DNA of 28,654 nt from Deltaproteobacteria bacterium (GCA_003647035.1 QMMB01000001.1:1-28654), one strand, 5' to 3'. Shown: positions 3 to 12,702, counted from the first letter of the stretch. Numbers and translations: made by a program. The notes: generated by a model from the sequence alone, not told the origin.

Positions 3-884
3 GTGCTCGAATACACGTACACCCGAAGCACCGGTCCGGTGGTCGGACGCTTCTTGGAAAACCTTCGGTACGAAGTGCTCGAAGGCGTCAAGACGGTCGA
101 CGGTCGCGTGCTTTGCCCGCCTCTCGAATACGACGAGGAGGGTGAACCGACGACCGGTGAGTTCGTACCGCTGCGTCCGTCGGGCACGGTGAAATCTTGG
201 TCATGGGTGCAGGAGCCTCGCAAGGGGCATCCGTTCGATCGTCCATTCGCTTGGGCCCTCATTCAACTCGACGGCACCGACAACGCCATGGTGCATGCCG
301 TCGATGCGGGCAAAGCCAAGCGAATGAAGACGGGGATGCGTGTTCGTTTGCGTTGGGCCGACCAGAAAAACGGGACCATCCGTGACATCGCGTGCTTCGA
401 GCCGATCGCTCCTTACCTGCCTGGTCCGGTGCATCTCGAGTACAAGGTGAACCCCGGGAAGCACTACACCGCCTATCTGCGCGGGCTGCAGGAGGGGAAG
501 CTCATCGGGGGCAGGGACCCGGAGGCGGGCAAGGTGTATGTCCCGCCTCGAGGGGCCGACCCCACGACGGGCAACCCGACGAGCGAATACGTCGAAGTGG
601 CCGACATCGGTGTCCTCACGACGTTCGCGATCATTCGCATCCCCTTTAAAGGCCAGAAGCTCACGCCGCCGTATTGCTTCGGGGCGATCGTGCTCGATGG
701 CGCGGACAGTCCCATCTACCATCTGATCAGCGGTGTCCCGCACGACGAGATCCGCATGGGCATGCGGGTCAAGGCGAAGTGGAAGCCCCAGGACGAATGG
801 GAAACTTCGCTCGAGAACATCCTCTACTTCGAACCCACGGGCGATCCAGACGCCCCGTTCGATAGCTATAAGGAACATCTCTAG
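3..884 (+). CDS. Tandem DUF35 OB-fold protein (Rv3521-like accessory partner of Ltp aldolases); probably 5'-truncated by the window edge
   Basis: Two internally repeated OB-fold units (GxVxSW/TTF...ALIQLDG/AIVLDG...GMRV). The C-terminus FDSYKEHL resembles Rv3521 (YDTYKHHL, from memory). The frame is open at the left edge and the stop overlaps the ltp4 start. Confidence 0.85.
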   Translation: MLEYTYTRSTGPVVGRFLENLRYEVLEGVKTVDGRVLCPPLEYDEEGEPTTGEFVPLRPSGTVKSWSWVQEPRKGHPFDRPFAWALIQLDGTDNAMVHAVDAGKAKRMKTGMRVRLRWADQKNGTIRDIACFEPIAPYLPGPVHLEYKVNPGKHYTAYLRGLQEGKLIGGRDPEAGKVYVPPRGADPTTGNPTSEYVEVADIGVLTTFAIIRIPFKGQKLTPPYCFGAIVLDGADSPIYHLISGVPHDEIRMGMRVKAKWKPQDEWETSLENILYFEPTGDPDAPFDSYKEHL

Positions 885-1939
885 TGCGTGACGTCGCCAT
901 TGTTTCCTTCTCGCAGCTCCCGTCGGTCAAGGCGATCGAGGCGGCCGATGAGCCCGAGCTCGTCCAGCCCGTCACCTCGGACGCGATGAAGCAGGTCGGT
1001 CTGACGCAAGATGACATCGGCTTCACGTGTTCCGGCAGCACCGACTACTTGCCGGGCCGTGCGTTCTCTTTCGTTGCAGCGGTCGACGGTCTCAAGGCGT
1101 GGCCTCCGATTCGCGAGTCACACGTCGAGATGGACGGCGCCTTTGCGCTCTACGAAGCTTGGGTGCGGCTGATGCAGGGGGATATCGACACCGCGTTGGT
1201 GTTTTCGTTTGGCAAGAGTTCGCTCGCGGCCGTTCCAGACGTCCTGAACCTGCAGAATGACCCCTACTACGTCCAGCCGCTCGGGCTCGACTCGATCAGC
1301 GCCGCGGCGCTTCAGGCGCAGGCCTTGATCGACAGCGGCAAGGCGACAGAGCGTGACTTCGCCGAAGTGGTTGCCCGCAATCGCAAGAACGCGATCGACA
1401 ACCCGAACGCGCACATCAAGGGCGATTTCAGCGTCGATGCAATGCTCGAAGAGCCCTATATCAGCTCCCCATTGCGCAAGAGCTTCTGCCCGCCGTTGTC
1501 CGACTCGGCTGCCGCGATCGTGCTCGCGGTCGGCGATACGGCGAAGAAGCTGGCGAAGCGGCCCGCTTGGATTCGCGGGTTCGACCATCGGACTGAACCA
1601 CATGCACTGGGTCAGCGCGACCTCACGACCTCGCCGTCTTCCAAACTGGCCGCCGAAAAAGCCGGCCTCGGCAAAGGCGAGGTGGACGTCGCGGAGCTTC
1701 ACGCGCCGTTTGCGCACCAGGAGATCATCTTGCGAGAGGCGATGGGCCTTGGTGATCGCGTCAGGGTCAATCCGTCCGGCGGGGCACTGGCGGCGAACTC
1801 GCTGATGACCGCGGGGTTGATTCGCTTCGGGGAAGCGGCGAACCGAGTGCTTTGCAGGGACGCGGATCGCGCACTCGCACACACGACAAACGGCGTCTGC
1901 CTTCAACACAACCTCGTTGCTATCTTGGAGGGCGAGTAA
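884..1939 (+). CDS. ltp4: Thiolase-superfamily lipid-transfer protein, Ltp4-like (putative steroid side-chain aldolase subunit)
   Basis: CSGSTDYLPGRAFSF, ESHVEMDGAFALYEAW, FSFGKSS, VNPSGGALAAN and ALAHTTNGVCLQHNLV closely follow M. tuberculosis Rv3522/Ltp4 as I recall it. No canonical thiolase CxSG cysteine. Syntenic with Rv3521-like and ltp3. Confidence 0.85.
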   Translation: MRDVAIVSFSQLPSVKAIEAADEPELVQPVTSDAMKQVGLTQDDIGFTCSGSTDYLPGRAFSFVAAVDGLKAWPPIRESHVEMDGAFALYEAWVRLMQGDIDTALVFSFGKSSLAAVPDVLNLQNDPYYVQPLGLDSISAAALQAQALIDSGKATERDFAEVVARNRKNAIDNPNAHIKGDFSVDAMLEEPYISSPLRKSFCPPLSDSAAAIVLAVGDTAKKLAKRPAWIRGFDHRTEPHALGQRDLTTSPSSKLAAEKAGLGKGEVDVAELHAPFAHQEIILREAMGLGDRVRVNPSGGALAANSLMTAGLIRFGEAANRVLCRDADRALAHTTNGVCLQHNLVAILEGE

Positions 1940-3087
1940 TGGCTGAGCAGTGTGCAGTCATCGGGATCGGTCAGACCAAGCATCGAGAGAGCCGGCGCGA
2001 TCTGTCGATTCCCGGCTTGGTCCGAGACGCCGCCATTCGCGCTCTACGAGACGCCGACATGACGTGGAAGGACATCGACTCCATCGTCATCGGCACTGCG
2101 CCCGACATGTTCGAGGGCGTCATGATGCCCGAACTGTGGTTGTCGGATGCTCTCGGTGCAGCTGGCAAGCCAATCTTCAGGGTCCACACCGCGGGCTCTG
2201 TCGGAGGCTCGACCGCGGTCGTTGCGTCTCACCTAATTCAAGGTGGCGTGCACGAGAAAGTGCTCACACTTGCGTTCGAGAAGCAGAGCGAGGCCAACGC
2301 GATGTGGGCGTTATCGCCCGTGGTCCCCTTTCAGCCGCAACTCGTAGCGGGTGCTGGCGGTTACTTCGCGCCTCTCATCCGGTCGTACATTCGCCGAGCC
2401 GACGCGCATCCCGACACCGGCTGCATGGTTGCCGTCAAGGACCGTCAGCACGGTTTGCTCAATCCGAATGCGCACCTTCATCTTGATCAAACCCTCGAGC
2501 AAGTGAAGGCCTCGCCGATGCTGTGGGACCCGATTCGATTCTCGGAGACCTGTCCCTCGTCCGACGGCGCGGTGGCGATGGTGCTCGTTAGCGAGAATCA
2601 CGCTGACCGCGTGAAGAACCCGGCATGGGTCAAGGGCACCTCGGTGCGAACCGAGCGCACGTTCTTCGCGGGGCGCGATCAGGTGAGTCCGGCCGCCGGG
2701 AAGCTGTGCGCGAAGGACGTGTACGACGAGGCCGGTATCACCAATCCTCTCAAAGAGATCGACTGCGCCGAGGTGTATGTGCCGTTCTCGTGGTTCGAGC
2801 CGATGTGGCTCGAGAACCTGGGTTTTGCCGAAGAGGGCGCAGGCTGGAGGATGACCATGGACGGCAAGACCAAGATTGGCGGCGCGATGCCGTTCAACAT
2901 GTCCGGTGGCGTCATGTGCACCAATCCGATTGGCGCCAGTGGTATGCTTCGATTTGCGGAAGCCGCGCGTCAGGTGCGCGGGACCGCTGAACAACACCAG
3001 GTTGACGGTGCAAAGGTGGCCCTTGGTCACGCGTACGGCGGTGGCTCGCAGTTCTTCGCGATGTGGATCGTGAGCTCGGAACGCTGA
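1939..3087 (+). CDS. ltp3: Thiolase-superfamily lipid-transfer protein, Ltp3-like
   Basis: APDMFEGVMMPEL, RVHTAGSVGGST, EKQSEANAMWAL, ETCPSSDG, EVYVPFSWFEPMWLENLGF and GHAYGGGSQFF match Rv3523/Ltp3. Start moved to the ATG at 1939, which overlaps the ltp4 stop (TAATG). Confidence 0.9.
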   Translation: MAEQCAVIGIGQTKHRESRRDLSIPGLVRDAAIRALRDADMTWKDIDSIVIGTAPDMFEGVMMPELWLSDALGAAGKPIFRVHTAGSVGGSTAVVASHLIQGGVHEKVLTLAFEKQSEANAMWALSPVVPFQPQLVAGAGGYFAPLIRSYIRRADAHPDTGCMVAVKDRQHGLLNPNAHLHLDQTLEQVKASPMLWDPIRFSETCPSSDGAVAMVLVSENHADRVKNPAWVKGTSVRTERTFFAGRDQVSPAAGKLCAKDVYDEAGITNPLKEIDCAEVYVPFSWFEPMWLENLGFAEEGAGWRMTMDGKTKIGGAMPFNMSGGVMCTNPIGASGMLRFAEAARQVRGTAEQHQVDGAKVALGHAYGGGSQFFAMWIVSSER

Positions 3088-3100
3088 GCCCGGAGAAACG

Positions 3101-4705
3101 ATGGAATACAATCTTGCAGATCTTTACGAGGCCATCGCGGATGCAACTCCCGACAATATGGCTTTGGCTTCAGGTGACGTGCACCACACGTATGCAGAGC
3201 TGGACAAGCGAGCGAACCGGCTCGGGCACTACCTGCAATCGCGGGGCATTGGAGCGGGCGACCACATAGGCCTTCATCTGTTCAACGGCCACGAGTTCGT
3301 GGAAGCGATTTTGGCGCTCTTCAAGATCCGCGCCGTCGGGATCAACATCAACTACCGCTTCGTGGGCCCCGAAGTGCGCTACATGATCGACGACGCGGAC
3401 CTCAAGGGCATCGTGACACAGCGACGGTTCGTTCCCGTGATCAACGAGGCCACGCAAGGTCTCGAGCCACTTCAGGCGCTCATCGTGATTGAGGACGGCG
3501 TGGACGCCATCGCCGATCAGGAGTCGATCGAGTACGAGACCGCGCTCGGGCAGGGCTCCGAGGAGCGGGATTTCGGGCCTAGGTCTGGCGATGACTTGTA
3601 CATCATCTACACCGGCGGCACGACCGGGATGCCCAAGGGCGTCATGTGGCGCCACGAGGACCTTTTCTTCTCGGGGCTCCAGGGCGGATCGCCCGGCGGC
3701 GAACCGGTCGAGTCCCCCGAGCAGCTCGTCGAGCAAGCCAAGGACGGATGGTACACGGTGACCATGCTTCCGTGCGCTCCGTTCATACACGGCGCAGCGC
3801 AGTTCACGCAGTGGATCTGTCACCTGACCGGCGGAAAGCTCGTGTTGCAACACGGGCCGAGCTTCGACGCGGGTCGCATTCTCTCCTTGGTCGCCGAGGA
3901 AGATGCTTCAACCTTATCGCTCGTGGGGGATGCCATGGCGATCCCTCTAATCGACGAGCTCAAGGCCGGCGACTACGACATGTCGAACCTCACGGTGATT
4001 GCGTCGGCCGGCGCCATCCTCTCGCCAAGCGTCCAAGCCGAGATCGAAGAGCTTCTCCCCGACGTAATGATCATCAACAGCTTCGGGACCAGCGAGTCGG
4101 GCGACCTCGGCCGCGCTGCCCGCGATGAGGACAGCCACGAGGGCCGCCCTTCCTTCTACATGGGGGAGGACGTCACCGTCTTGGACGAAGAGGGTAAACA
4201 GATCGAGCCGGGCTCCGGCGAGATCGGCATGGTTGCTCGCTCGGGCCGCTTGTCCCTCGGCTACTCCGCGGCCACCGAGAAGACCGCCGAGCGCTTCAGG
4301 GAGTTCAACGGCAAGCGCTGGGTCGTGCCCGGCGACTTCGCTACCGTCGAAGAGGATGGGCGCATCACATTCCTGGGCCGTGGTAGCAAGTGCATCAACA
4401 CCGGCGGCGAGAAGGTCTTCCCCGAAGAGGTGGAAGAAGCGCTCAAGGCGCACCCGGACATTATCGACGCGCTCGTTGTCGCTGTTCCGGACCCCCGCTT
4501 CGGCTCGAAGGTTGCGGCCGTGTTCAACACGCGTGACAACAAGCACCTTTCGCTCGACGAAGTGAAGGAACACTGTCGAAAGCATGTCGCGAGGTACAAG
4601 CTTCCGCGACAGATCACCATCACCGAGACGGTCTCCCGCATGCCGAGCGGAAAGCCGGATTACCCCTGGGCGGAGAAAATCGCCCGCGACCAGGCGAGCG
4701 CGTAG
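3101..4705 (+). CDS. fadD19: Acyl-CoA synthetase, FadD19-like steroid-CoA ligase
   Basis: AMP-binding YTGGTTGMPKGVMWRHED, GDAMAIPL, FGTSESG, INTGGEKVFPEEVE and GKPDYPWA match the FadD19 subfamily. RBS-like GGAGA upstream of the ATG. Confidence 0.8.
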   Translation: MEYNLADLYEAIADATPDNMALASGDVHHTYAELDKRANRLGHYLQSRGIGAGDHIGLHLFNGHEFVEAILALFKIRAVGININYRFVGPEVRYMIDDADLKGIVTQRRFVPVINEATQGLEPLQALIVIEDGVDAIADQESIEYETALGQGSEERDFGPRSGDDLYIIYTGGTTGMPKGVMWRHEDLFFSGLQGGSPGGEPVESPEQLVEQAKDGWYTVTMLPCAPFIHGAAQFTQWICHLTGGKLVLQHGPSFDAGRILSLVAEEDASTLSLVGDAMAIPLIDELKAGDYDMSNLTVIASAGAILSPSVQAEIEELLPDVMIINSFGTSESGDLGRAARDEDSHEGRPSFYMGEDVTVLDEEGKQIEPGSGEIGMVARSGRLSLGYSAATEKTAERFREFNGKRWVVPGDFATVEEDGRITFLGRGSKCINTGGEKVFPEEVEEALKAHPDIIDALVVAVPDPRFGSKVAAVFNTRDNKHLSLDEVKEHCRKHVARYKLPRQITITETVSRMPSGKPDYPWAEKIARDQASA

Positions 4706-4741
4706 CGCATGCCGACAAGTACCCAAGCCCAAGAGGAACCC

Positions 4742-5716
4742 ATGTCCACCGCACGAGAAAAAGAAGAGGAGCTTTTTCCTGGCTTTCCGCGTGGTTGGTT
4801 TGTCATCGGAATCTCCAGCGAGCTGGCGCCGAGCGACGTCAAACCGATCAAGTACTTCGACCGAGAGATGGTCTTGTACCGAGGCGAAAGTGGCGCGGCG
4901 ATCGTGCACGACGCGTTTTGCCCGCACCTAGGAGCACACCTCGGTCATGGGGGCAAAGTCGTCGGAGAGACGATTCAATGTCCGTTCCACGCCTGGCGGT
5001 TCGACGAAACCGGTAAGTGCGTTGAGGTGCCCTACGCCAAACGGATTCCGCCGCGCGCCTGCGTGAAGAATAACCCTGTCCAGGAGCACAACGGGTTGAT
5101 CTGCATGTGGAATGCCCATGTCGAGGGCGAGGAGCCCACCTGGGAGATCCCCGACGTCCCCGAATACGGCAGTGAAGGCTGGACCGATTGGGGTTCTGTT
5201 CTCATCGACATCAAGACGCACCCGAAAGAGATCGTCGAGAACCTCGCTGACAAGGGCCATTTCGGTCCGGTTCACGGGACATGGGCCAACGAGTTTGGAA
5301 ACGAGTTCAAGGACCACATCGGTATTCAGTACGTCAAAGGGGTTGCGTATCCGCGAGGCGGCGGCGAGGATCACTTCGAGCTGCAATCTACGTACTACGG
5401 GCCCGGCTACATGCTCACCGAGATGCAGAGCGTTCTGCCGAACATCATGCTTCTGTGTCACACCCCGGTGGACAAGAACAACGTTCACGTTCGAATCGGC
5501 GCGATGATCGACATTTCGAACGTCAAAAAGGGTAAAGAGCAATTCGAGCAGGGCTACCGCGAGAACATCATCGTCGGTTTCAAAGAGGACATCGCGATTT
5601 GGGAAAACAAAAAGTACCGAACGCGACCGATTCTGTGTGACGGTGACGGCGACGTGGGAGCTCTGCGCCGCTGGTATCAGAAGTTCTACATGCCCCAAGC
5701 AGAGGTTGGATATTAG
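4742..5716 (+). CDS. kshA: Rieske non-heme iron steroid oxygenase, KshA-like (3-ketosteroid 9-alpha-hydroxylase / Neverland superfamily)
   Basis: Rieske motif CPHLGAHL...CPFHAW. Mononuclear Fe motif ENLADKGHFGPVH. KshA-like C-domain TYYGPGYM, LCHTPV, FKEDIAIWENK and LRRWYQKFY. Start chosen at ATG 4742 (GAGGAA RBS); an alternative ATG is at 4709. Confidence 0.7.
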   Translation: MSTAREKEEELFPGFPRGWFVIGISSELAPSDVKPIKYFDREMVLYRGESGAAIVHDAFCPHLGAHLGHGGKVVGETIQCPFHAWRFDETGKCVEVPYAKRIPPRACVKNNPVQEHNGLICMWNAHVEGEEPTWEIPDVPEYGSEGWTDWGSVLIDIKTHPKEIVENLADKGHFGPVHGTWANEFGNEFKDHIGIQYVKGVAYPRGGGEDHFELQSTYYGPGYMLTEMQSVLPNIMLLCHTPVDKNNVHVRIGAMIDISNVKKGKEQFEQGYRENIIVGFKEDIAIWENKKYRTRPILCDGDGDVGALRRWYQKFYMPQAEVGY

Positions 5717-5718
5717 AA

Positions 5719-6297
5719 ATGGATGACCGAGCCAAGCGCATCGTTGAAACGGCCGTCGCACTCGCGGAGCGCGACGGATACCAGGCGGTACGGCTGCGGG
5801 ACGTTGCAGCCAGTGCACAGGTAGCGCTCGGCACGGTCTACAAGCGTTTCGCCAGCAAAGAGGAGATCCTCATCGCGGCGTTGGAGCAAGAGAGCGAGAG
5901 GCTCGTCGCTAAGATCGGCAAGAAGTCGGTTCCGGGCGACGGCCCACAGGAGCGGGTGCGCTTTGTTTTTACCGCGCTGACGAAGGGGCTTCTTCGGCGG
6001 CCGAATCTTGCCAAGGCCTTGGTCCGGTCGTTGGCGTCTGGGGACCCGAACATCACCGAGCGCGTGGCGAGCTTCCACGCCCTCATCACGGCACTGGTCA
6101 TGGCGGCGATTCGCGGCGAAGCGGCCGCCGACGAGAGTGAGTGGGGGGGCGACGTCGACGAGCGCGAGCGCACCATCTCCTCGATCCTGCAGAACGTGTG
6201 GTTCGCGTCGTTCGTCGGATGGGCCGGCGGCCTCCACGACGGGCCCCAAGTCCTCGAAGACGTCGACAAAACGGCGAAGCTTCTGCTAGCGGCGTAG
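5719..6297 (+). CDS. kstR: TetR-family repressor, KstR-like
   Basis: HTH GYQAVRLRDVAASAQVALGTVYKRFASK resembles KstR (GYEAVQMRAVADRADVAVGTLYRYFPSK). C-domain ISSILQNVWFASFVGW resembles KstR IARVISDVWLSNLLAW. It sits in a steroid operon with a KstR box nearby. Confidence 0.7.
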   Translation: MDDRAKRIVETAVALAERDGYQAVRLRDVAASAQVALGTVYKRFASKEEILIAALEQESERLVAKIGKKSVPGDGPQERVRFVFTALTKGLLRRPNLAKALVRSLASGDPNITERVASFHALITALVMAAIRGEAAADESEWGGDVDERERTISSILQNVWFASFVGWAGGLHDGPQVLEDVDKTAKLLLAA

Positions 6298-6334
6298 GCG
6301 AGGGCCCATTACTTCCACGCAGCGATTTCGATGG

Positions 6335-8446
6335 GTGCTTCCTTGCCCCAAGGGGTGCGAGGACACGCTTGCAGAAGAGGTGCGAAACCTCGACGTGGAA
6401 GTCACCGCTGTGCGGCCAACCGCCGTGCATGCGCGCGGCACGTTGCAAGAGGGATATCGGTTGTGCCTGTGGTCTCGCGTCGCATCCCGGGTCTTGCTTC
6501 CGCTCGTCGAGCTCGATGCCGAAGACGACACCGCTCTCTATGATGCGCTCCGCGGGGTCGCTTGGTGGGAACATTTCGACGCCAATCAGACGTTCGCGAT
6601 TGGCAGCTCTCAGGCTCCGAAGAGCCCTTTCCCTTCGCACTACTGGGTGCAGCGAGCGAAGGATGCGATCGTCGATAGCTTTCGGGATCACTCCGGTACG
6701 CGCCCGAGCATCGACAAGAAGGACCCGGCGATACGGTTTCACCTGCACATCGGCGAGTCGCATCACGAGCTCGCCCTCGATTTCTCGGGGGAGGGCTTGC
6801 ACCGGCGGGGCTACCGGCAGGCGGGCGGCAAGGCTCCGCTCAAGGAGAATCTAGCCGCGGCCATTCTATATCTCGCCGGCTGGCCGCAAGCGGCGCGCAA
6901 GGGCCTGACGCTGATGGATCCGACCTGCGGCTCGGGCACGTTCTTGATCGAAGCAGCCTTGATGGCGACGAACTGTGCGCCCGGGCTCTTGCGAGCGCGC
7001 TTTGGGTTCGAGGATTGGCTGCGGCACGACGATGCGGCGTTCGCCACCGAGCGAGATGCCGCACTGACCGCGCGCCAGGCCGAGTGTCCGGCGAGGATCT
7101 TTGGCTGCGACGCATCGGAGAAGGCATTGTCGTACGTTCGGGACAACCTCGCGGCGGCAGGGGTCGAGCAGCACGTGTCGCTGGCCGTGAAGGAACTGTC
7201 TGCCGTCGAGAAGCCCGCTGAGGGTGGCATCCTCGTGTGCAATCCCCCATACGGTCATCGGCTAGGTGACGAGGGCACGCTGTTCCTGTTCTATCAGGCG
7301 CTCGGCGATACGTTGAAGCGCGTCTTTGACGGATGGACCGCCTACGTGTTTGCGGCGCACGGCGGCAACCTCAAGCACCTCGGACTTCGACCGACGCGCC
7401 GCCACGTTCTGTACAACGGTTCGATCGAGTGCCGTCTGGTAGAGATCCCCATACGCGGTGTGGTCGGGGGAGAATCGGCCAGGCCGCCGGGTTGGCGAAA
7501 GCCCAGCGAGAAGGCCCAGATGTTCGCCAACCGCATCAAGAAGAACAAGAAAAAGTGGGGGAGATGGGCGAAGCGCAGCGGCATCGAATGCTACCGGATC
7601 TACGACGCGGACATTCCGGAGTACAACGTCGCCGTTGATCGCTATCAGACCAAAGCGGTGGTTCACATCTTCCAGAAGGAGCGAGACGCCAACGACGACG
7701 GCGCGAAGCAGCGAGTTCAAGACGTGTTGATGACGCTTCCCGATGCGCTGGGCATCGACCCTGACGACCTCATCGTGAAAGTCAGACGCAAACACGACGA
7801 GGGTGACCAGTACGCCCGCATCTCGCAGCAAGAAGCTGAGATGATTGTCGGTGAGGGTGACCTTCGCTTCGTGGTGAACCTGGAAGACCGGATCGACACG
7901 GGCCTCTTCTTGGACCACCGCGCAGTGCGCGCGTACGCAGCGGAGCAATGCAAAGGGAAGCGCATGCTGAATCTGTTTTCGTACACCTGCTCGGTGAGCG
8001 TCGCGGCGGCGGTCGGCGGCGCCAAGCAGACCACGAGCGTCGACCTCTCGAACACCTACCTCGACTGGGGCAAGAAGAACTTCAAGGCCAACGATCTCGA
8101 CGTCGCAAGACACCGCTTCATCCGCGACGACGCCACCCGCTGGATGGCCAGAGACCGCAACAGCTACGACTGGATCTTCATCAACCCGCCCACCTTCTCG
8201 CGCTCTAAGATGAGCAAGGGCGACTTCAACATCCACAAGGACCACAAGGCGCTGATCGAAAGCGCCATGAGCTCCCTAGACAAAAAGGGCGAGCTCCTCT
8301 TCACCACCCACGCCCGGGCCTTCGAGTTGGACGAGGTAATCACAAGCCGCTTCCACGTCGAAAACGTGACGAAGCAGTTCGTCCCCCCCGACTTCGTCCG
8401 ATACCCCTTCCAAGCCTTTCGCCTGAGGACACACTCCACCCGCTGA
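6335..8446 (+). CDS. rlmKL: Bifunctional 23S rRNA methyltransferase RlmL-RlmK (m2G2445 / m7G2069)
   Basis: YRLCLWSRVASRVLL, GLHRRGYR, APLKENLAAA, DPTCGSGTFLIEAA, NPPYG, CYRIYDADIPEY, DTGLFLDHR, LNLFSYT and INPPTFS. The start is uncertain (GTG 6335 versus a non-canonical ACG at 6317). Confidence 0.95.
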   Translation: MLPCPKGCEDTLAEEVRNLDVEVTAVRPTAVHARGTLQEGYRLCLWSRVASRVLLPLVELDAEDDTALYDALRGVAWWEHFDANQTFAIGSSQAPKSPFPSHYWVQRAKDAIVDSFRDHSGTRPSIDKKDPAIRFHLHIGESHHELALDFSGEGLHRRGYRQAGGKAPLKENLAAAILYLAGWPQAARKGLTLMDPTCGSGTFLIEAALMATNCAPGLLRARFGFEDWLRHDDAAFATERDAALTARQAECPARIFGCDASEKALSYVRDNLAAAGVEQHVSLAVKELSAVEKPAEGGILVCNPPYGHRLGDEGTLFLFYQALGDTLKRVFDGWTAYVFAAHGGNLKHLGLRPTRRHVLYNGSIECRLVEIPIRGVVGGESARPPGWRKPSEKAQMFANRIKKNKKKWGRWAKRSGIECYRIYDADIPEYNVAVDRYQTKAVVHIFQKERDANDDGAKQRVQDVLMTLPDALGIDPDDLIVKVRRKHDEGDQYARISQQEAEMIVGEGDLRFVVNLEDRIDTGLFLDHRAVRAYAAEQCKGKRMLNLFSYTCSVSVAAAVGGAKQTTSVDLSNTYLDWGKKNFKANDLDVARHRFIRDDATRWMARDRNSYDWIFINPPTFSRSKMSKGDFNIHKDHKALIESAMSSLDKKGELLFTTHARAFELDEVITSRFHVENVTKQFVPPDFVRYPFQAFRLRTHSTR
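7985..8428 (+). repeat. Direct repeat copy 1 (3' 148 codons of rlmKL)
   Basis: Manual codon alignment with 11338-11781 gives 444 bp, 35 substitutions and 2 single-base indels (~92% identity). Confidence 0.95.
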
Positions 8447-8551
8447 GAAGCAGCGTGGTATCGTGCACTTTGGGGAGCAGAAGAGTGATCCCTGGGGACG
8501 GGAGCGTGGCCTTTTCTTTCGCAAGGGAGGTCTACGGGTCATAACGCGGGG

Positions 8552-9580
8552 ATGAGCGAGCCGTCGAGTGCCGGCCCACCGGGGCGAGATGCAGCTGCTC
8601 GGGTCGGCGCCCGCGTCGCGGCCCTACGTGAACTCGGCGAGCATATCGCCGAACGCGTGCCCTCGCGGTTGCGCAAGGGCCTGCGTCGGGCGCTCTCGGT
8701 CGGATTCTTCGTCGTGATCGCGCTGGTGCTTTACCGACAACTCTCCGGCACCGATTGGTCCGAGGTACTGCGTTCGGTCCCGCGATCGCCCTGGTTCTAC
8801 GTCATCTTCCTTGTGCGATATCTCAACGTTCCGATCACAGACGCGCTCTCCTACTCGGCCGTTTGGGCGACGAATCTCTTCCGTCACTTCGGCGTCTTCC
8901 TCATGAAGCGCGTGATCAATAGCTCGTTCTCCGGGGGTTCGGGCGACGTCTACTTCCTGCTGTGGACAGTCAGAACGCTCCGCGTGACCTATTGGCAGGC
9001 CTTCTCCGCAGGGAAGGATGTGACCTTACTTTCCGCAGCAGCTGCCAACGCGGTTGCCGTCGTGGTGTTAGGGGCTTACTTGGCCTTTGGCGATCTGTCC
9101 CTCGTACAGGCCGTGAGCCCGGCGGTGCTGGGTCTCGTCATCGGAGTCACCCTTGCGACCGCCGTATTGAGCCTATTCGTCGTTCGTTTTCGGGGTAAGG
9201 TCCTGGGGATCGGCACCGACGTCATGTGGCGCATCCTCGGGTACCACGGTGCACGAAGCATTGCCAAGATCCTCTTGCTGGGGCTGCAGTGGACCGTCGG
9301 CCTGCCCGGGTCGAGGTTCTCGGACTGGATTGGCTTGCTCGTCGTGGACATGCTGGTTGCTCGCACACCGTTGGTGCCGGCGCGAGAGTTCCTGTTTCTC
9401 TCGCTGGCCTTGAGTCTGGCGGGCACGATCGACGCCCCCGAAGTGCAGGTGACCGCGATGTTCCTGACAGATACCGCCCTGATGCAACTCGGTTCCGTGG
9501 CCTCACTGATTGCCGGGATCGTGTGGAAGTCCAAGCCCGACCCGCTCCCAAGGGCGCCTGAGAACGGAGGACCGAAGTAG
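8552..9580 (+). CDS. Multi-pass membrane protein, resembling lysylphosphatidylglycerol-synthase TM / flippase-like domain proteins
   Basis: Several hydrophobic stretches (GFFVVIALVLY, WFYVIFLV, AVAVVVLGAYLAFG, VLGLVIGVTLATAVLSLFVV, FLFLSLALSLAG). No catalytic motif recognised. Adjacent to a glycosyltransferase. Confidence 0.55.
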   Translation: MSEPSSAGPPGRDAAARVGARVAALRELGEHIAERVPSRLRKGLRRALSVGFFVVIALVLYRQLSGTDWSEVLRSVPRSPWFYVIFLVRYLNVPITDALSYSAVWATNLFRHFGVFLMKRVINSSFSGGSGDVYFLLWTVRTLRVTYWQAFSAGKDVTLLSAAAANAVAVVVLGAYLAFGDLSLVQAVSPAVLGLVIGVTLATAVLSLFVVRFRGKVLGIGTDVMWRILGYHGARSIAKILLLGLQWTVGLPGSRFSDWIGLLVVDMLVARTPLVPAREFLFLSLALSLAGTIDAPEVQVTAMFLTDTALMQLGSVASLIAGIVWKSKPDPLPRAPENGGPK

Positions 9581-9627
9581 CAGACGTCCGACTGGACCGA
9601 GCCTCCGTGCGCGGGTAGACCGGCCTA

Positions 9628-10614
9628 GTGCGTATCGCCTACTTCGTACATGGCAACGGTCGCGGCCACGCGATGCGCGCTCGCTCGCTCGTCCCGGCGC
9701 TCCGCACGCACGGTCACGACGTGCACGTCCATGCGAGCGGCGAGGCGGTCGCGATGCTGCGCGACCTCGGGGGCGCCGAGGTCGACGCTTTCCTTCCGGG
9801 GAGGCAGCTCGCATCACGGTTCGCCGCGCGTCTCGCCACCGATCGTCGACTCCTGGGCGCCCTGCGGCCTGACGTGATCGTCGTGGACGGCGATGCGCCA
9901 TCTCTTCACGCGGCGGCCATGCTGCGGGTCCCGAGCGTCGCGATCGGGCACGGCCTCATCTTCGCGCACTGCCGTCTACCGATCGCGCTTCCGCTTCACC
10001 ATCGCGCGCGCGAGGCGCTGAGTGCGGCGAGCGCCTCATGGCTCGCGCACCGCGTGATCGTAGTGCACTTTGGCGTGCTCGAGTCCTTCGATCCACGCGT
10101 GGTCGTCGCGCGACCCGACCCGCGACCTGAGCTCTTCGAAGGCGACACACGGCCAGGGGACAAGCTCGTTGTGTACGCGGGGACGACGGATCTCTCTGCC
10201 TACGTTCGAGGGCTGCACACGCGCGGACACCGGCTCGTGGTGTTCGGCCGCGTGGCGAATCTGCCTGACGGCGTGGTGGCCGAGGCTCCCGACGTGGCGC
10301 GTTTCGCGGCCGCGCTTCGCGGCTGTCGCGGCATCGTGGGGACCGCCGGCTCCAACCTCGTTTCAGAGGCGGGCGCGCTCGGTCGCCCGCTCCTCGCGCT
10401 TGCGCCTGGGCACATGATCGAGCAGCAGGTCAACGCTCGTCTCGCCGAGCGCGACGGCTTCGCGATAGCGGCCGCGGCCGGGCGGATTGATGTCCCTGCA
10501 ATCCAACGCTTCGAGGCGCTCCTGGAGCGCGGCGTGCCGCGGATCGAGCCGCCGACACCGACCGTGACCGAGGCCTTGTCCGCGTGCCTCGCCGAGCTTG
10601 CAGGCGCCGTTTGA
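9628..10614 (+). CDS. GT-B glycosyltransferase (MJ1255/VC2487-like, Glyco_trans_1_3/GT28-like)
   Basis: N-terminal RIAYFVHGNGRGHAMR (GxGxGH) and C-terminal GIVGTAGSNLVSEAGALGRP...EQQVNA nucleotide-sugar-binding motif. Confidence 0.75.
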   Translation: MRIAYFVHGNGRGHAMRARSLVPALRTHGHDVHVHASGEAVAMLRDLGGAEVDAFLPGRQLASRFAARLATDRRLLGALRPDVIVVDGDAPSLHAAAMLRVPSVAIGHGLIFAHCRLPIALPLHHRAREALSAASASWLAHRVIVVHFGVLESFDPRVVVARPDPRPELFEGDTRPGDKLVVYAGTTDLSAYVRGLHTRGHRLVVFGRVANLPDGVVAEAPDVARFAAALRGCRGIVGTAGSNLVSEAGALGRPLLALAPGHMIEQQVNARLAERDGFAIAAAAGRIDVPAIQRFEALLERGVPRIEPPTPTVTEALSACLAELAGAV

Positions 10615-10645
10615 CGGTTCGCGGCCTGTGCGCCATGCCCCGCAT

Positions 10646-11311
10646 ATGACGGTTGTCTCTCCTCTCGACGCGCCGTGGGCCCTCGGCGAGCGAGCTTATT
10701 CTCAGATCCTCCGACACCTCCGGGCGATCGACGCGCGCACGATCGTCGAGCTCGGTAGCGGCGCGTCGACCGCGGCGCTTGCTCGCGACCTCCCCGATGC
10801 GACGATCCTTTCGGTCGATGACGACGCGAGTTATTTCGCGCGCACCCGCGCGCAGCTACCCGTGAACGCGCGCGTGACGCTCGTGCACCGTCCCCTCGTG
10901 TGGCAGCGCCATGGCGGCGCGCCCTACCTGAGCTACGAACGCGGCACGTTCCCTCGCGCCGTGGACGCACTCCTCGTCGACGGGCCCCCTCACTGGACGC
11001 GCCGCGGCCGCGAGGCATGTCTTTACCAGGTAATGCCGTCGCTCGAGGTCGGCGCGCGGATCTTCTTGGACGACTATCGGCGCACAGCGGAGCAGCGGAC
11101 GGTGCGGCACTGGCTCAGCGCCTACCCAAATGTCCTGCGTCTCGTCGAGGTGATCGAGGAAGGTGACTACGTCGCAGTGCTCGAGAAGACCGCAGAAGCG
11201 ACTGAGCCACGGCACACGCTCTGGCGCCGCGCCGATGCGCAGTTGCAAGCGATGTTGCAGCCGCTCACGAGCCGTGTGCGTAGCGTCGCACTGCGGTCAC
11301 GACGGCGGTAG
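10646..11311 (+). CDS. Class I SAM-dependent methyltransferase (Methyltransf_24-like)
   Basis: IVELGSGAST (motif I), LSVDDD, LLVDGPP and IFLDDYRR. Start at ATG 10646; an alternative TTG at 10598 overlaps the GT stop. Confidence 0.75.
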   Translation: MTVVSPLDAPWALGERAYSQILRHLRAIDARTIVELGSGASTAALARDLPDATILSVDDDASYFARTRAQLPVNARVTLVHRPLVWQRHGGAPYLSYERGTFPRAVDALLVDGPPHWTRRGREACLYQVMPSLEVGARIFLDDYRRTAEQRTVRHWLSAYPNVLRLVEVIEEGDYVAVLEKTAEATEPRHTLWRRADAQLQAMLQPLTSRVRSVALRSRRR

Positions 11312-11337
11312 CGGACAAGCACACCCACGAGTAGCCC

Positions 11338-11814
11338 ACGTGTTCGGTCAGTGTCGCGGCGGCGGTCGGCGGCGCCAAGCAGACCACGAGCGTCGATCTC
11401 TCGAACGCCTACCTCGACTGGGGCAACAAGAACTTCAAAGCCAACGACCTGGACCCCCGCGAGGCACCGTTTCATTCGCGATGCGCCACCCGCTGGATGG
11501 CCAGAGACCGCAACAGCTACGACTGGATCTTCATCAACCCGCCCACCTTTTCGCGCTCGAAGATGAGCAAGGGCAACTTCAACATCCACAAAGACCACAA
11601 GACGCTGATCGAAAGCGCCATGAGCTCCCTAGACATGAAGGGCGAGCTCCTCTTCACCACCCACGCCCGGGCCTTCGAGTTGGACGAGGTAATCACAAGC
11701 CGCTTCCACGTCGAAGACGCAACAAAACAGTTCGTCCCCCCCGACTTCACCCGCTACCCCTTCCAAGCCTTCCGCCTCCGGAAAAGGGGACCGTCCCCTT
11801 TGTCGAAAGGATAA
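11338..11814 (+). pseudogene. rlmKL: 5'-truncated rlmK C-terminal fragment (direct repeat copy 2, homology 11338-11781)
   Basis: Reads TCSVSVAAAVGGAKQTTSVDLS...FINPPTFSRSKMSKG...YPFQAFRLR. In-frame TAG at 11332-11334 and no start codon until Met 11497. It lacks the SAM-binding LNLFSY start. There is a +1 insertion (C run 11454-11458) and a -1 deletion (after 11483). Confidence 0.9.
11783..11801. terminator. Palindrome AAAGGGGAC-C-GTCCCCTTT (REP-like / bidirectional terminator-like)
   Basis: Perfect 9-bp arms. On the minus strand the hairpin is followed by TTTT, about 29 nt past the amidohydrolase stop. A near-identical copy is at 20669-20690. Confidence 0.65.
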
Positions 11815-11829
11815 TTCGCTCGGACCCTT

Positions 11830-12702
11830 CTATTGCTCCAACTTGAAGACGCGCTGCGCATTCTGACGCAGGAACTTCGGCCAGACGTGGTCCTTGAAGG
11901 GCACGTTTTGCATCTCGGTGAAGATACGCTCTAGTGACAGCCCCATCGGGAAGTAGCCGGCGAACATGATCTTGTCGGCTCCGCGCGTGTTCGCGTAGTG
12001 GATGATCGACTTCGGGTAGTGCTTCGGCGCGAAGGCGCTCGTGCTGTAGTAGAGGTTGGGGTATTTGAGCATCAGCTTGACTGCCAGGTCGACCCAGGGC
12101 TCGCCACCGTGGCGCATCACGAATTTCAGCTCCGGGAAAAACCAGCAAACTTCGTCGATGTGTTCGACCTTCTGCGGCTCCATTGGGATGCGCGGCCCGG
12201 GGACGCCCACGCAGACGCAAATCGGGATGTCTAGGTCAACGCAGGTCGCGTAGATCGGGTAGTACTTTTTGTCGTTCAACGGGACCTGTGGGCACAGGCC
12301 CGACGGAAATCCGGTCACAGCCTTGAGACCGTGCTCCTTGTGCAGCTTCCGGATCTTCCGGACCTCCTCCATGCCGTTGTTCGGATTCGCCCCGTACGAC
12401 GTGAAGAAGCGGTCCGGGTACTTGCGGCATGCGTCGAGGTTGGTCGAGTTCGGCCCGGAGATGCCCAGCATCGCCTGCTCGATGCCCCACTTGTCCATCT
12501 CTGCGATCGCGTAACCGACGTAGTCCTTCTGATCGACGATCTGCGGGATGTCCTTGAACATGTACTCGGCCGGCATCTTGAACTGCTTCCGGCTCTCTTC
12601 GTCCAGCAGCAGCGGCTTGATGAACTCGTACCAAGCTGTGGGGTCCCCGTCGGGGATGTTCATCATCAGATCGATGGCTTTGAGGCCACTCGGTATCGGC
12701 AT
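11830..12702 (-). CDS. Amidohydrolase_2-family TIM-barrel protein (atypical metal ligands)
   Basis: YPDRFF, KYYPIYATCVDLDIP, FPELKFVMRHGGEPW, KYPNLYYSTSA, DKIMFAGYFP and FLRQNAQRVFKL are typical of the family. Divergent from hsaA. Confidence 0.8.
   Translation of the reverse strand: MPIPSGLKAIDLMMNIPDGDPTAWYEFIKPLLLDEESRKQFKMPAEYMFKDIPQIVDQKDYVGYAIAEMDKWGIEQAMLGISGPNSTNLDACRKYPDRFFTSYGANPNNGMEEVRKIRKLHKEHGLKAVTGFPSGLCPQVPLNDKKYYPIYATCVDLDIPICVCVGVPGPRIPMEPQKVEHIDEVCWFFPELKFVMRHGGEPWVDLAVKLMLKYPNLYYSTSAFAPKHYPKSIIHYANTRGADKIMFAGYFPMGLSLERIFTEMQNVPFKDHVWPKFLRQNAQRVFKLEQ

Follow-up and report, generated by a model that had tools for sequence, protein, structure and literature searches.

An intact rlmKL gene, a three-gene cassette and a displaced rlmKL tail in an uncultured marine-sediment bacterium: probable allelic exchange closed by a six-base microhomology joint

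In a 28,654-nucleotide stretch of DNA from a Deltaproteobacteria bacterium (GCA_003647035.1, QMMB01000001.1:1-28654; hereafter the window, which is contig C1 of a 570-contig metagenome-assembled genome that is 90.6% complete), the gene rlmKL is followed by a cassette of three genes and then by a second, diverged version of its own 3' end. We refer to the functional 3' part of rlmKL as copy A and to the tail on the far side of the cassette as copy B. Our results suggest that the two copies descend from two different alleles, and that the window form arose by an exchange between a cassette-bearing and a cassette-free chromosome in which one end was resolved by homology and the other was joined illegitimately at six shared bases, a reading to which we assign a probability of about 0.7. 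The locus is in our view a clean natural example of known processes, and not a new kind of element or a new mobile element. Microhomology-guided gene acquisition is well known in laboratory transformation, and few cases are known to us in wild uncultured populations. Here the empty, the filled and the filled-with-relic states can be compared within one species, so that the joint, the types of the parental alleles and the decay of the relic can be read directly.

The two copies form a direct repeat (7984-8429 and 11337-11782) that is 92% identical and spaced by 3353 bases. A repeat search reported it as two segments (7984-8101 / 11337-11454 at 92% identity and 8131-8429 / 11484-11782 at 94%), and alignment with MAFFT gave a single continuous repeat of ~446 bases; upstream of 7984/11337 and downstream of 8429/11782 the sequences are not similar. 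Copy B begins within a glycine-rich stretch that we take to be the S-adenosylmethionine (SAM)-binding motif. Over 147 codons in the frame of copy A, the copies differ by 22 synonymous and 9 non-synonymous codon changes, exactly the counts given for this 444-bp duplication in a first-pass annotation of the window, which had also noted one +1 and one -1 indel; both lie in copy B, where the run 11454-11458 is longer by one C and an A is lacking between 11483 and 11484. The ratio of non-synonymous to synonymous substitution rates (dN/dS), which that annotation had proposed to compute, is 0.114 (Nei-Gojobori, dS 0.299, dN 0.034), and the differences depart strongly from the neutral ratio of non-synonymous to synonymous sites (binomial p = 2.6e-8). 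Both states are found in intact relatives for 21 of the 35 substitutions, with 9 substitutions private to copy A and 5 private to copy B. The earlier view that both copies evolved as functional alleles in different lineages thus stands, and most of the divergence between them is allelic and older than their juxtaposition.

The changes private to copy B comprise 4 non-synonymous and 1 synonymous substitution and 2 frameshifts, both indels being absent from copy A and from all eight other intact alleles aligned. A T>A and a K>N change strike residues that are invariant in 19 intact homologues, and a K>M change falls where these homologues have K, R, N or Q, never Met. These private changes point to decay. 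We therefore consider copy B to be non-functional and decaying, with a small, neutral-looking layer of changes apparently added after its function was lost. For annotation, this locus cautions that a diverged gene-end duplication that bears a signature of purifying selection need not signify an integrative element or a pair of functional copies.

Between rlmKL and the convergent amidohydrolase gene lies a gap that exists in three states. The empty state is found at 18/18 full-length loci of the genus first examined, where TetR-rlmKL, the convergent amidohydrolase and an acyl-CoA-dehydrogenase-like gene come in this order and all three cassette genes are absent. A same-species contig (L070, PVMK01123931.1), mostly 96-100% identical to the window in its flanks, is empty as well; its rlmKL ends in ...RLRKRG*, ten bases from the amidohydrolase stop. 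In the second state, represented by contigs L062-L067, the same cassette stands behind rlmKL and there is no duplication. L062 (PVMK01131246.1) and the Joint Genome Institute (JGI) contigs L063-L066 match window positions 637-11342 at 96.6-97%, and past the cassette they hold ~1 kb with two open reading frames (ORFs), ORF183 and ORF79, before the amidohydrolase. All of the Logan runs X2, X3 and X6 hold the junction from rlmKL to the cassette, and contigs of X2 and X6 depart from the window at 11342 and 11339 into the sequence that follows the cassette in the sister strains, not into copy B. The third state is that of the window, the cassette followed by copy B. The first-pass annotation had treated the duplication as a by-product of cassette entry, which is at odds with the cassette standing without it in L062-L067 and with the continuation of X2 and X6.

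As for the two reading frames of the second state, ORF183 encodes 183 amino acids with an N-terminus that reads like a lipoprotein signal. ORF79 (79 amino acids; L063 3876-4112, and the same in L062 and L064-L066) matches only the C-terminal part of an acyl-CoA thioesterase C-terminal domain (4HBT_3C, E 7e-5) and is another gene relic in the slot.

The end of rlmKL itself comes in two types. L062 and L070, which come from one metagenome, are identical over 7250-8366 and differ from 8367 onward, so that the cassette and empty states diverge from inside rlmKL. In their last ~80 bases the cassette-linked genes encode ...GTHSTR* or ...GTLSTLSTR*, and that of the window ...RTHSTR* (cassette-bearing L062-L064 and the window); RKRG-type ends are found at empty sites. 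At its right end copy A differs from L062 at 6 positions within the last ~67 bases of the repeat; from there the two agree up to and including the stop codon and a 16-base motif, s1, just beyond. Copy B is of the RKRG type, has 1 difference from the cassette-free L070 over its last ~70 bases, and its C-terminus, RKRGPSPLSKG, resembles those of the intact genes of G063 (RKRGQSPFSKG) and G057 (RKRGQTPFQKG). Because it bears an empty-site 3' end and is still joined to the amidohydrolase, copy B is the relic of a cassette-free allele, which bears out the earlier suggestion that 11338-11814 is a displaced tail. A further contig, L168, with the related end ...TLSTS, is uninformative, as it lacks s1 and breaks off 46 bases past rlmKL. 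In other relatives the same slot holds a desaturase-like gene, a 480-amino-acid ORF or a molybdopterin-oxidoreductase-like ORF (named from translations). With conserved genes flanking a content that differs, and the left breakpoint between states (from 8367) inside one of these flanking genes, the gap between rlmKL and the amidohydrolase is a variable slot whose contents appear to be exchanged through homology in its flanks.

A 16-base direct repeat, s1 and s2 (AAGCAGCGTGGTATCG and AAGTAGCGTGGTATCG, a 15/16 match; L062 7803-7818 and 10702-10717), flanks the cassette of the sister strains and starts 2-3 bases from either border; the window retains its left copy only. By our own estimate, an exact 12-mer common to two 400-base flanks is expected ~0.01 times by chance. 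Candidate origins of the pair are an older microhomology insertion or a regulatory site.

The loss of s2 from the window coincides with the joint between the cassette and copy B. The window tracks L062-type sequence exactly to ...GTAGCCCACGTG (11342), where L062 continues with CAAGAAGTAGCGTGGTATCG (s2). Past this position the window reads TTCGGTCAGTG..., which is rlmKL from just after the CACNTG at 7984-7989. Upstream of the six joint bases, CACGTG to the right of the cassette and CACNTG in rlmKL, the sequences are unrelated, and the match falls within the 3-10 bases between unrelated sequences that mark a microhomology joint. We suggest that the joint is the product of illegitimate, microhomology-mediated recombination, and most simply of homology-facilitated illegitimate recombination, a process with 3-10 bp joints described in laboratory transformation (PMC6382021, citing de Vries & Wackernagel 2002).

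The arrangement is found beyond the assembly in which it was noticed. Contigs of five other JGI samples cross both junctions, two of them (L160 from 3300033142 and L150 from 3300033144) with 100% identity to the window across copy A, the cassette, the joint and copy B, and the others from 3300033147, 3300033151 and 3300033154; two junction-spanning contigs belong to other deposited metagenome-assembled genomes. In the source-like run X1, contig depth is ~5 for copy A, ~5 for copy B and 6-7 for the cassette, and it is about double (11.1) in the segment where A and B are identical, as predicted for one genome carrying both copies. The first-pass annotation had allowed for a locus with no sequence spanning its junctions or with no empty-site form among relatives; independent contigs cross both junctions, and empty sites occur in relatives of the genus and in L070.

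A few contigs of other samples, otherwise identical, carry small indels within the repeat. L151 has a 25-base tandem duplication in copy A (window 8282-8306). L157 has deletions at window 5103 (in kshA) and 11620-11682 (in copy B), and L158 at 5378 (in kshA) and 11551-11637 (in copy B), with 63 and 87 bases missing from copy B, and 37 and 25 from kshA; both contigs are contained in deposited metagenome-assembled genomes (GCA_019314505.1 and GCA_019311085.1). We considered these indels as genuine recombination variants of A and B and set this aside, as L157 and L158 carry similar small deletions in kshA; they are probably assembly errors.

From the observed slot states, 3'-end types, joint and private damage to copy B, we infer the recombination pathway and the involvement of RecA as follows. 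Strains would normally swap the contents of the slot by recombining homologously within the two flanking genes, and it is because of this mode of exchange that the cassette would be accompanied by an rlmKL end of its own (the last ~80 bases). The window form would then require one further, rare event between a cassette-bearing and a cassette-free chromosome, in which homology in the flanking DNA served to resolve one end and the other was joined illegitimately at the six-base match between CACGTG to the right of the cassette and CACNTG in rlmKL. The product would be an intact rlmKL that ends, through copy A, in the cassette type, then the cassette and then, as copy B, the terminal 444 bases of the cassette-free allele, still fused to its own amidohydrolase. 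Two readings of the direction are available. Either DNA of a cassette strain, ending at 11342, entered a cassette-free recipient that had the B allele, which is the direction taken in the first-pass annotation, or a cassette strain took up a fragment reaching from rlmKL 7990 into the amidohydrolase, and this fragment replaced s2, ORF183 and ORF79. Divergence of the flanks does not tell the direction, identity to the sister strains being patchy (93-100%) on both sides. The earlier proposal that incoming DNA brought both an rlmK 3' end and the cassette thus holds in that the cassette carries its own replacement end, and its assignment of host and incoming sides goes beyond what these data decide.

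Several observations weigh against this exchange model. Its one homologous end is the inferred part, as the homologous crossover is not locatable: both flanks are homologous to the sister strains, with patchy identity of 93-100% away from the junction region, and no single crossover point can be placed. Over the first 150 bases of the repeat, a three-way star relates copy A, copy B and the allele of the sister strains, with 12, 11 and 6 discriminating sites. In addition, a patch of rlmKL at 7250-8135, which crosses the left edge of copy A, has only 82-92% identity to the same-species L062 and L070 (themselves identical over this stretch), as against 96-100% in its flanks. Together, the star and the patch oblige any model to include at least one additional recombination; no closer allele for the patch, for the left part of A or for the left part of B was present among the loci compared. 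Two contigs end at the joint and do not cross it (Logan SRR6479059 at 11345 and one of ENA assembly ERZ27227316 at 11339), which could reflect low depth or a co-occurring variant. Finally, natural transformation is, to our knowledge, not known for this uncultured lineage. The patch appears to have been imported separately, from a more remote lineage, and three window-type JGI contigs start at 7237-7306, its left edge.

Among the alternatives, the RecA-type capture favored by the first-pass annotation deserves the most attention, though we find it unlikely. A 3353-base circle made of the rlmKL tail and the cassette would have entered a cassette-free strain by one Campbell-type crossover within the 444-base homology, from which it could loop out again. 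The direct repeat on both sides of the insert is what this predicts, the identical runs of 78, 66 and 44 bases shared by A and B suffice for RecA, and a crossover near 8131 would account for the left part of A going with the divergent head patch and its right part going with the cassette. The reciprocal hybrids expected of such a crossover are matched by the right parts of the copies (A of cassette type, B of empty type), but their left 150 bases form the star described above, and the left part of B is not donor-like, with 11 non-private differences from L062 in 152 bases versus 2-3% in the cassette. Moreover, a single crossover alone cannot make the six-base joint; the same illegitimate CACGTG join would be needed beforehand to close the circle, an extra step and not a saving, and the circle, being non-replicating, would need transfer between cells. 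Neither a circle of ~3.35 kb nor a loop-out product or recombined empty site was seen in the source-like run (contigs only; the reported back-joints are the two copies), and the frameshifts accumulated in copy B imply a stable arrangement. The bolder version, in which the 3353-base unit is a recombinase-free mobile module that uses a piece of a housekeeping gene as homing arm and cycles between circle and chromosome by host RecA, seems to us quite improbable. It is prompted by the presence of the cassette in at least four other contexts in the genus (L161 in G012, L163/L164 in G059, L162 in G016, L165 in G052, L166 in G051 and L167 in G013), by nucleotide homology between genomes of different contexts that ends at or just past the cassette borders, by a methyltransferase gene that in two genomes (G012 and G059) lies upstream of orf342 and not downstream of the glycosyltransferase, and by s1/s2 in the sister strains.

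The same range of genomic contexts, the s1/s2 repeats and the replacement 3' end that the cassette supplies to rlmKL would also fit an island inserted by an integrase into the 3' end of this gene, with the integrase since lost or acting in trans. We hold this to be very improbable. No recombinase family was matched by the three genes between the copies or by ORF183 and ORF79 of the sister strains (Pfam and NCBIfam), nor by the neighboring genes in the window (Pfam), in line with the earlier description of the insertion as integrase-less. The repeat of ~446 bases, 92% identical and with two indels, is unlike an attachment (att) site, the sister strains have only the 16-base s1/s2, the match at the joint is just 6 bases, and no flanking repeats surround the cassette in five other genomes. 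A local tandem duplication of the rlmKL tail that then diverged in place is virtually ruled out by the 3'-end types and dN/dS, even though A and B are each other's best match (92% over the whole 444 bases versus 86-89% to most species representatives). The end of B and its fusion to the amidohydrolase are of empty-site type, the end of A is of the cassette type of strains without B, and most A/B differences are shared polymorphisms. Furthermore, the nearest species, G069, has 92.1% and 91.2% identity to the two copies over the 353 bases covered, about the identity that they have to each other; being about equally distant from both, it does not tell which tail is native. Equally remote is a strain-chimeric assembly that joined a cassette-bearing to a cassette-free strain. 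The source genome is a 570-contig, metagenome-assembled one, the two halves of the locus have different nearest alleles, and contigs break at the joint in two assemblies, as noted above; the junction-spanning contigs of five other JGI samples nevertheless rule it out in practice. The six bases shared at the joint are too few for a mis-join in a de Bruijn graph, no contig of the source-like run leaves the cassette end for other sequence, and one Logan contig runs 3 bases into B without mismatch. We therefore retain the exchange with one homologous and one illegitimate end.

The features of the locus are collected in Table 1. By the NCBI names of homologous proteins in related metagenome-assembled genomes, the source genome, that of an uncultured marine-sediment bacterium, is placed among Polyangiales/Myxococcota. 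RlmKL is a bifunctional 23S ribosomal RNA m2G2445/m7G2069 methyltransferase; in the window all four of its domains score above the Pfam cut-offs in one protein, which shares 70-92% amino acid identity with its orthologues (18 genus relatives, aligned over the full gene). The immediate neighboring genes, by Pfam scan, encode KshA, TetR, the amidohydrolase and an acyl-CoA-dehydrogenase-like protein. The insert lies within a steroid-catabolism gene cluster.

Table 1. Features of the rlmKL-amidohydrolase region, in window coordinates
Feature	Position	Strand	Basis
rlmKL, intact, bifunctional 23S rRNA methyltransferase, 703 amino acids	6335-8446	+	Pfam RlmL_1st, THUMP, UPF0020, Methyltrans_SAM
Window-specific divergent patch in rlmKL, crossing the left edge of copy A	7250-8135	+	Sister-strain alignment
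Copy A, functional 3' part of rlmKL	7984-8429	+	Repeat search and MAFFT
Cassette-linked replacement 3' end of rlmKL (...RLRTHSTR*)	8367-8446	+	L062 versus L070; copy A follows L062
s1, 16-base motif AAGCAGCGTGGTATCG, without right-hand counterpart s2 in the window	8448-8463	+	Sister-strain comparison
orf342, multi-pass membrane protein	8552-9580	+	No Pfam or NCBIfam match
Glycosyltransferase, Glyco_trans_1_3 / MJ1255 family	9628-10614	+	Family scans
Class I SAM methyltransferase, Methyltransf_24 just under the Pfam cut-off	10598-11311	+	Pfam
CACGTG, microhomology at the illegitimate joint (cassette right flank versus rlmKL CACNTG at 7984-7989)	11337-11342	+	Comparison with L062
Copy B, 5'-truncated, frameshifted relic of the empty-site rlmKL allele; stop 11812-11814	11337-11814	+	Alignments
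Amidohydrolase (Amidohydro_2), convergent with rlmKL; its right-hand neighbor at empty sites	11830-12702	-	Pfam

The three genes of the cassette likely add a cell-envelope function that modifies a glycolipid or glycan. A feature search of the ESM Atlas points, as a lead only, from orf342 to clusters of the TIGR00374 / LPG_synthase_TM-like kind. The methyltransferase is annotated in other assemblies as a 221-amino-acid version with a start further downstream. The G+C content of the glycosyltransferase and methyltransferase region is 68-72%, versus 58-62% for rlmKL and the amidohydrolase. A simple scan of 8350-11900 for promoters and terminators found nothing. In its other contexts in the genus, the genes of the cassette have ~68-80% amino acid identity each. 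A second, more distant homologue of orf342 (71-74% nucleotide identity) is split across two contig ends of the source genome (G000 C171:6518-6957 and C555:1-296), and a lone gene of the orf342 type, without the other two, is present in several relatives in the genus, including G014, G048, G019, G050 and G046.

The locus shares features with several known systems. As in the genomic islands that occupy the 3' ends of genes (att sites in genes for transfer RNA, transfer-messenger RNA or proteins), the cassette allele brings an rlmKL end of its own (the last ~80 bases), with a displaced tail beyond the cassette; unlike in these islands, there is no integrase, the 444-base repeat is only 92% identical, and sister strains have the cassette without the displaced tail. 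Capsule and O-antigen loci are variable slots between conserved core genes that are swapped by homologous recombination in their flanks. Similarly, rlmKL and the amidohydrolase are conserved around a varying content, a breakpoint lies inside a flanking gene and the divergence of the flanks is raised; however, the slot described here is small (0-4 kb), and its illegitimate joint and gene relic are not produced by simple swapping. Campbell insertion-duplication yields the same final topology of a gene, an insert and a truncated second copy in direct orientation, but here there is no vector-like circle or replication function, the fragment boundary is one of microhomology, and the expected reciprocal hybrid pattern is not seen.

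Homology-facilitated illegitimate recombination in Acinetobacter baylyi, Streptococcus pneumoniae and Pseudomonas stutzeri (PMC6382021, which cites de Vries & Wackernagel 2002) resembles the window, as far as that account describes it, in the novel 3-10 base microhomology joint beside flanking homology, in the gain of foreign DNA with the loss of ~1 kb relative to the sister arrangement, and in the lack of a dedicated recombinase. The window differs in that the event is seen as a footprint in an uncultured population, read from sequence alone, and in that the 'foreign' piece is a diverged copy of a gene 3.3 kb away, which leaves a direct repeat.

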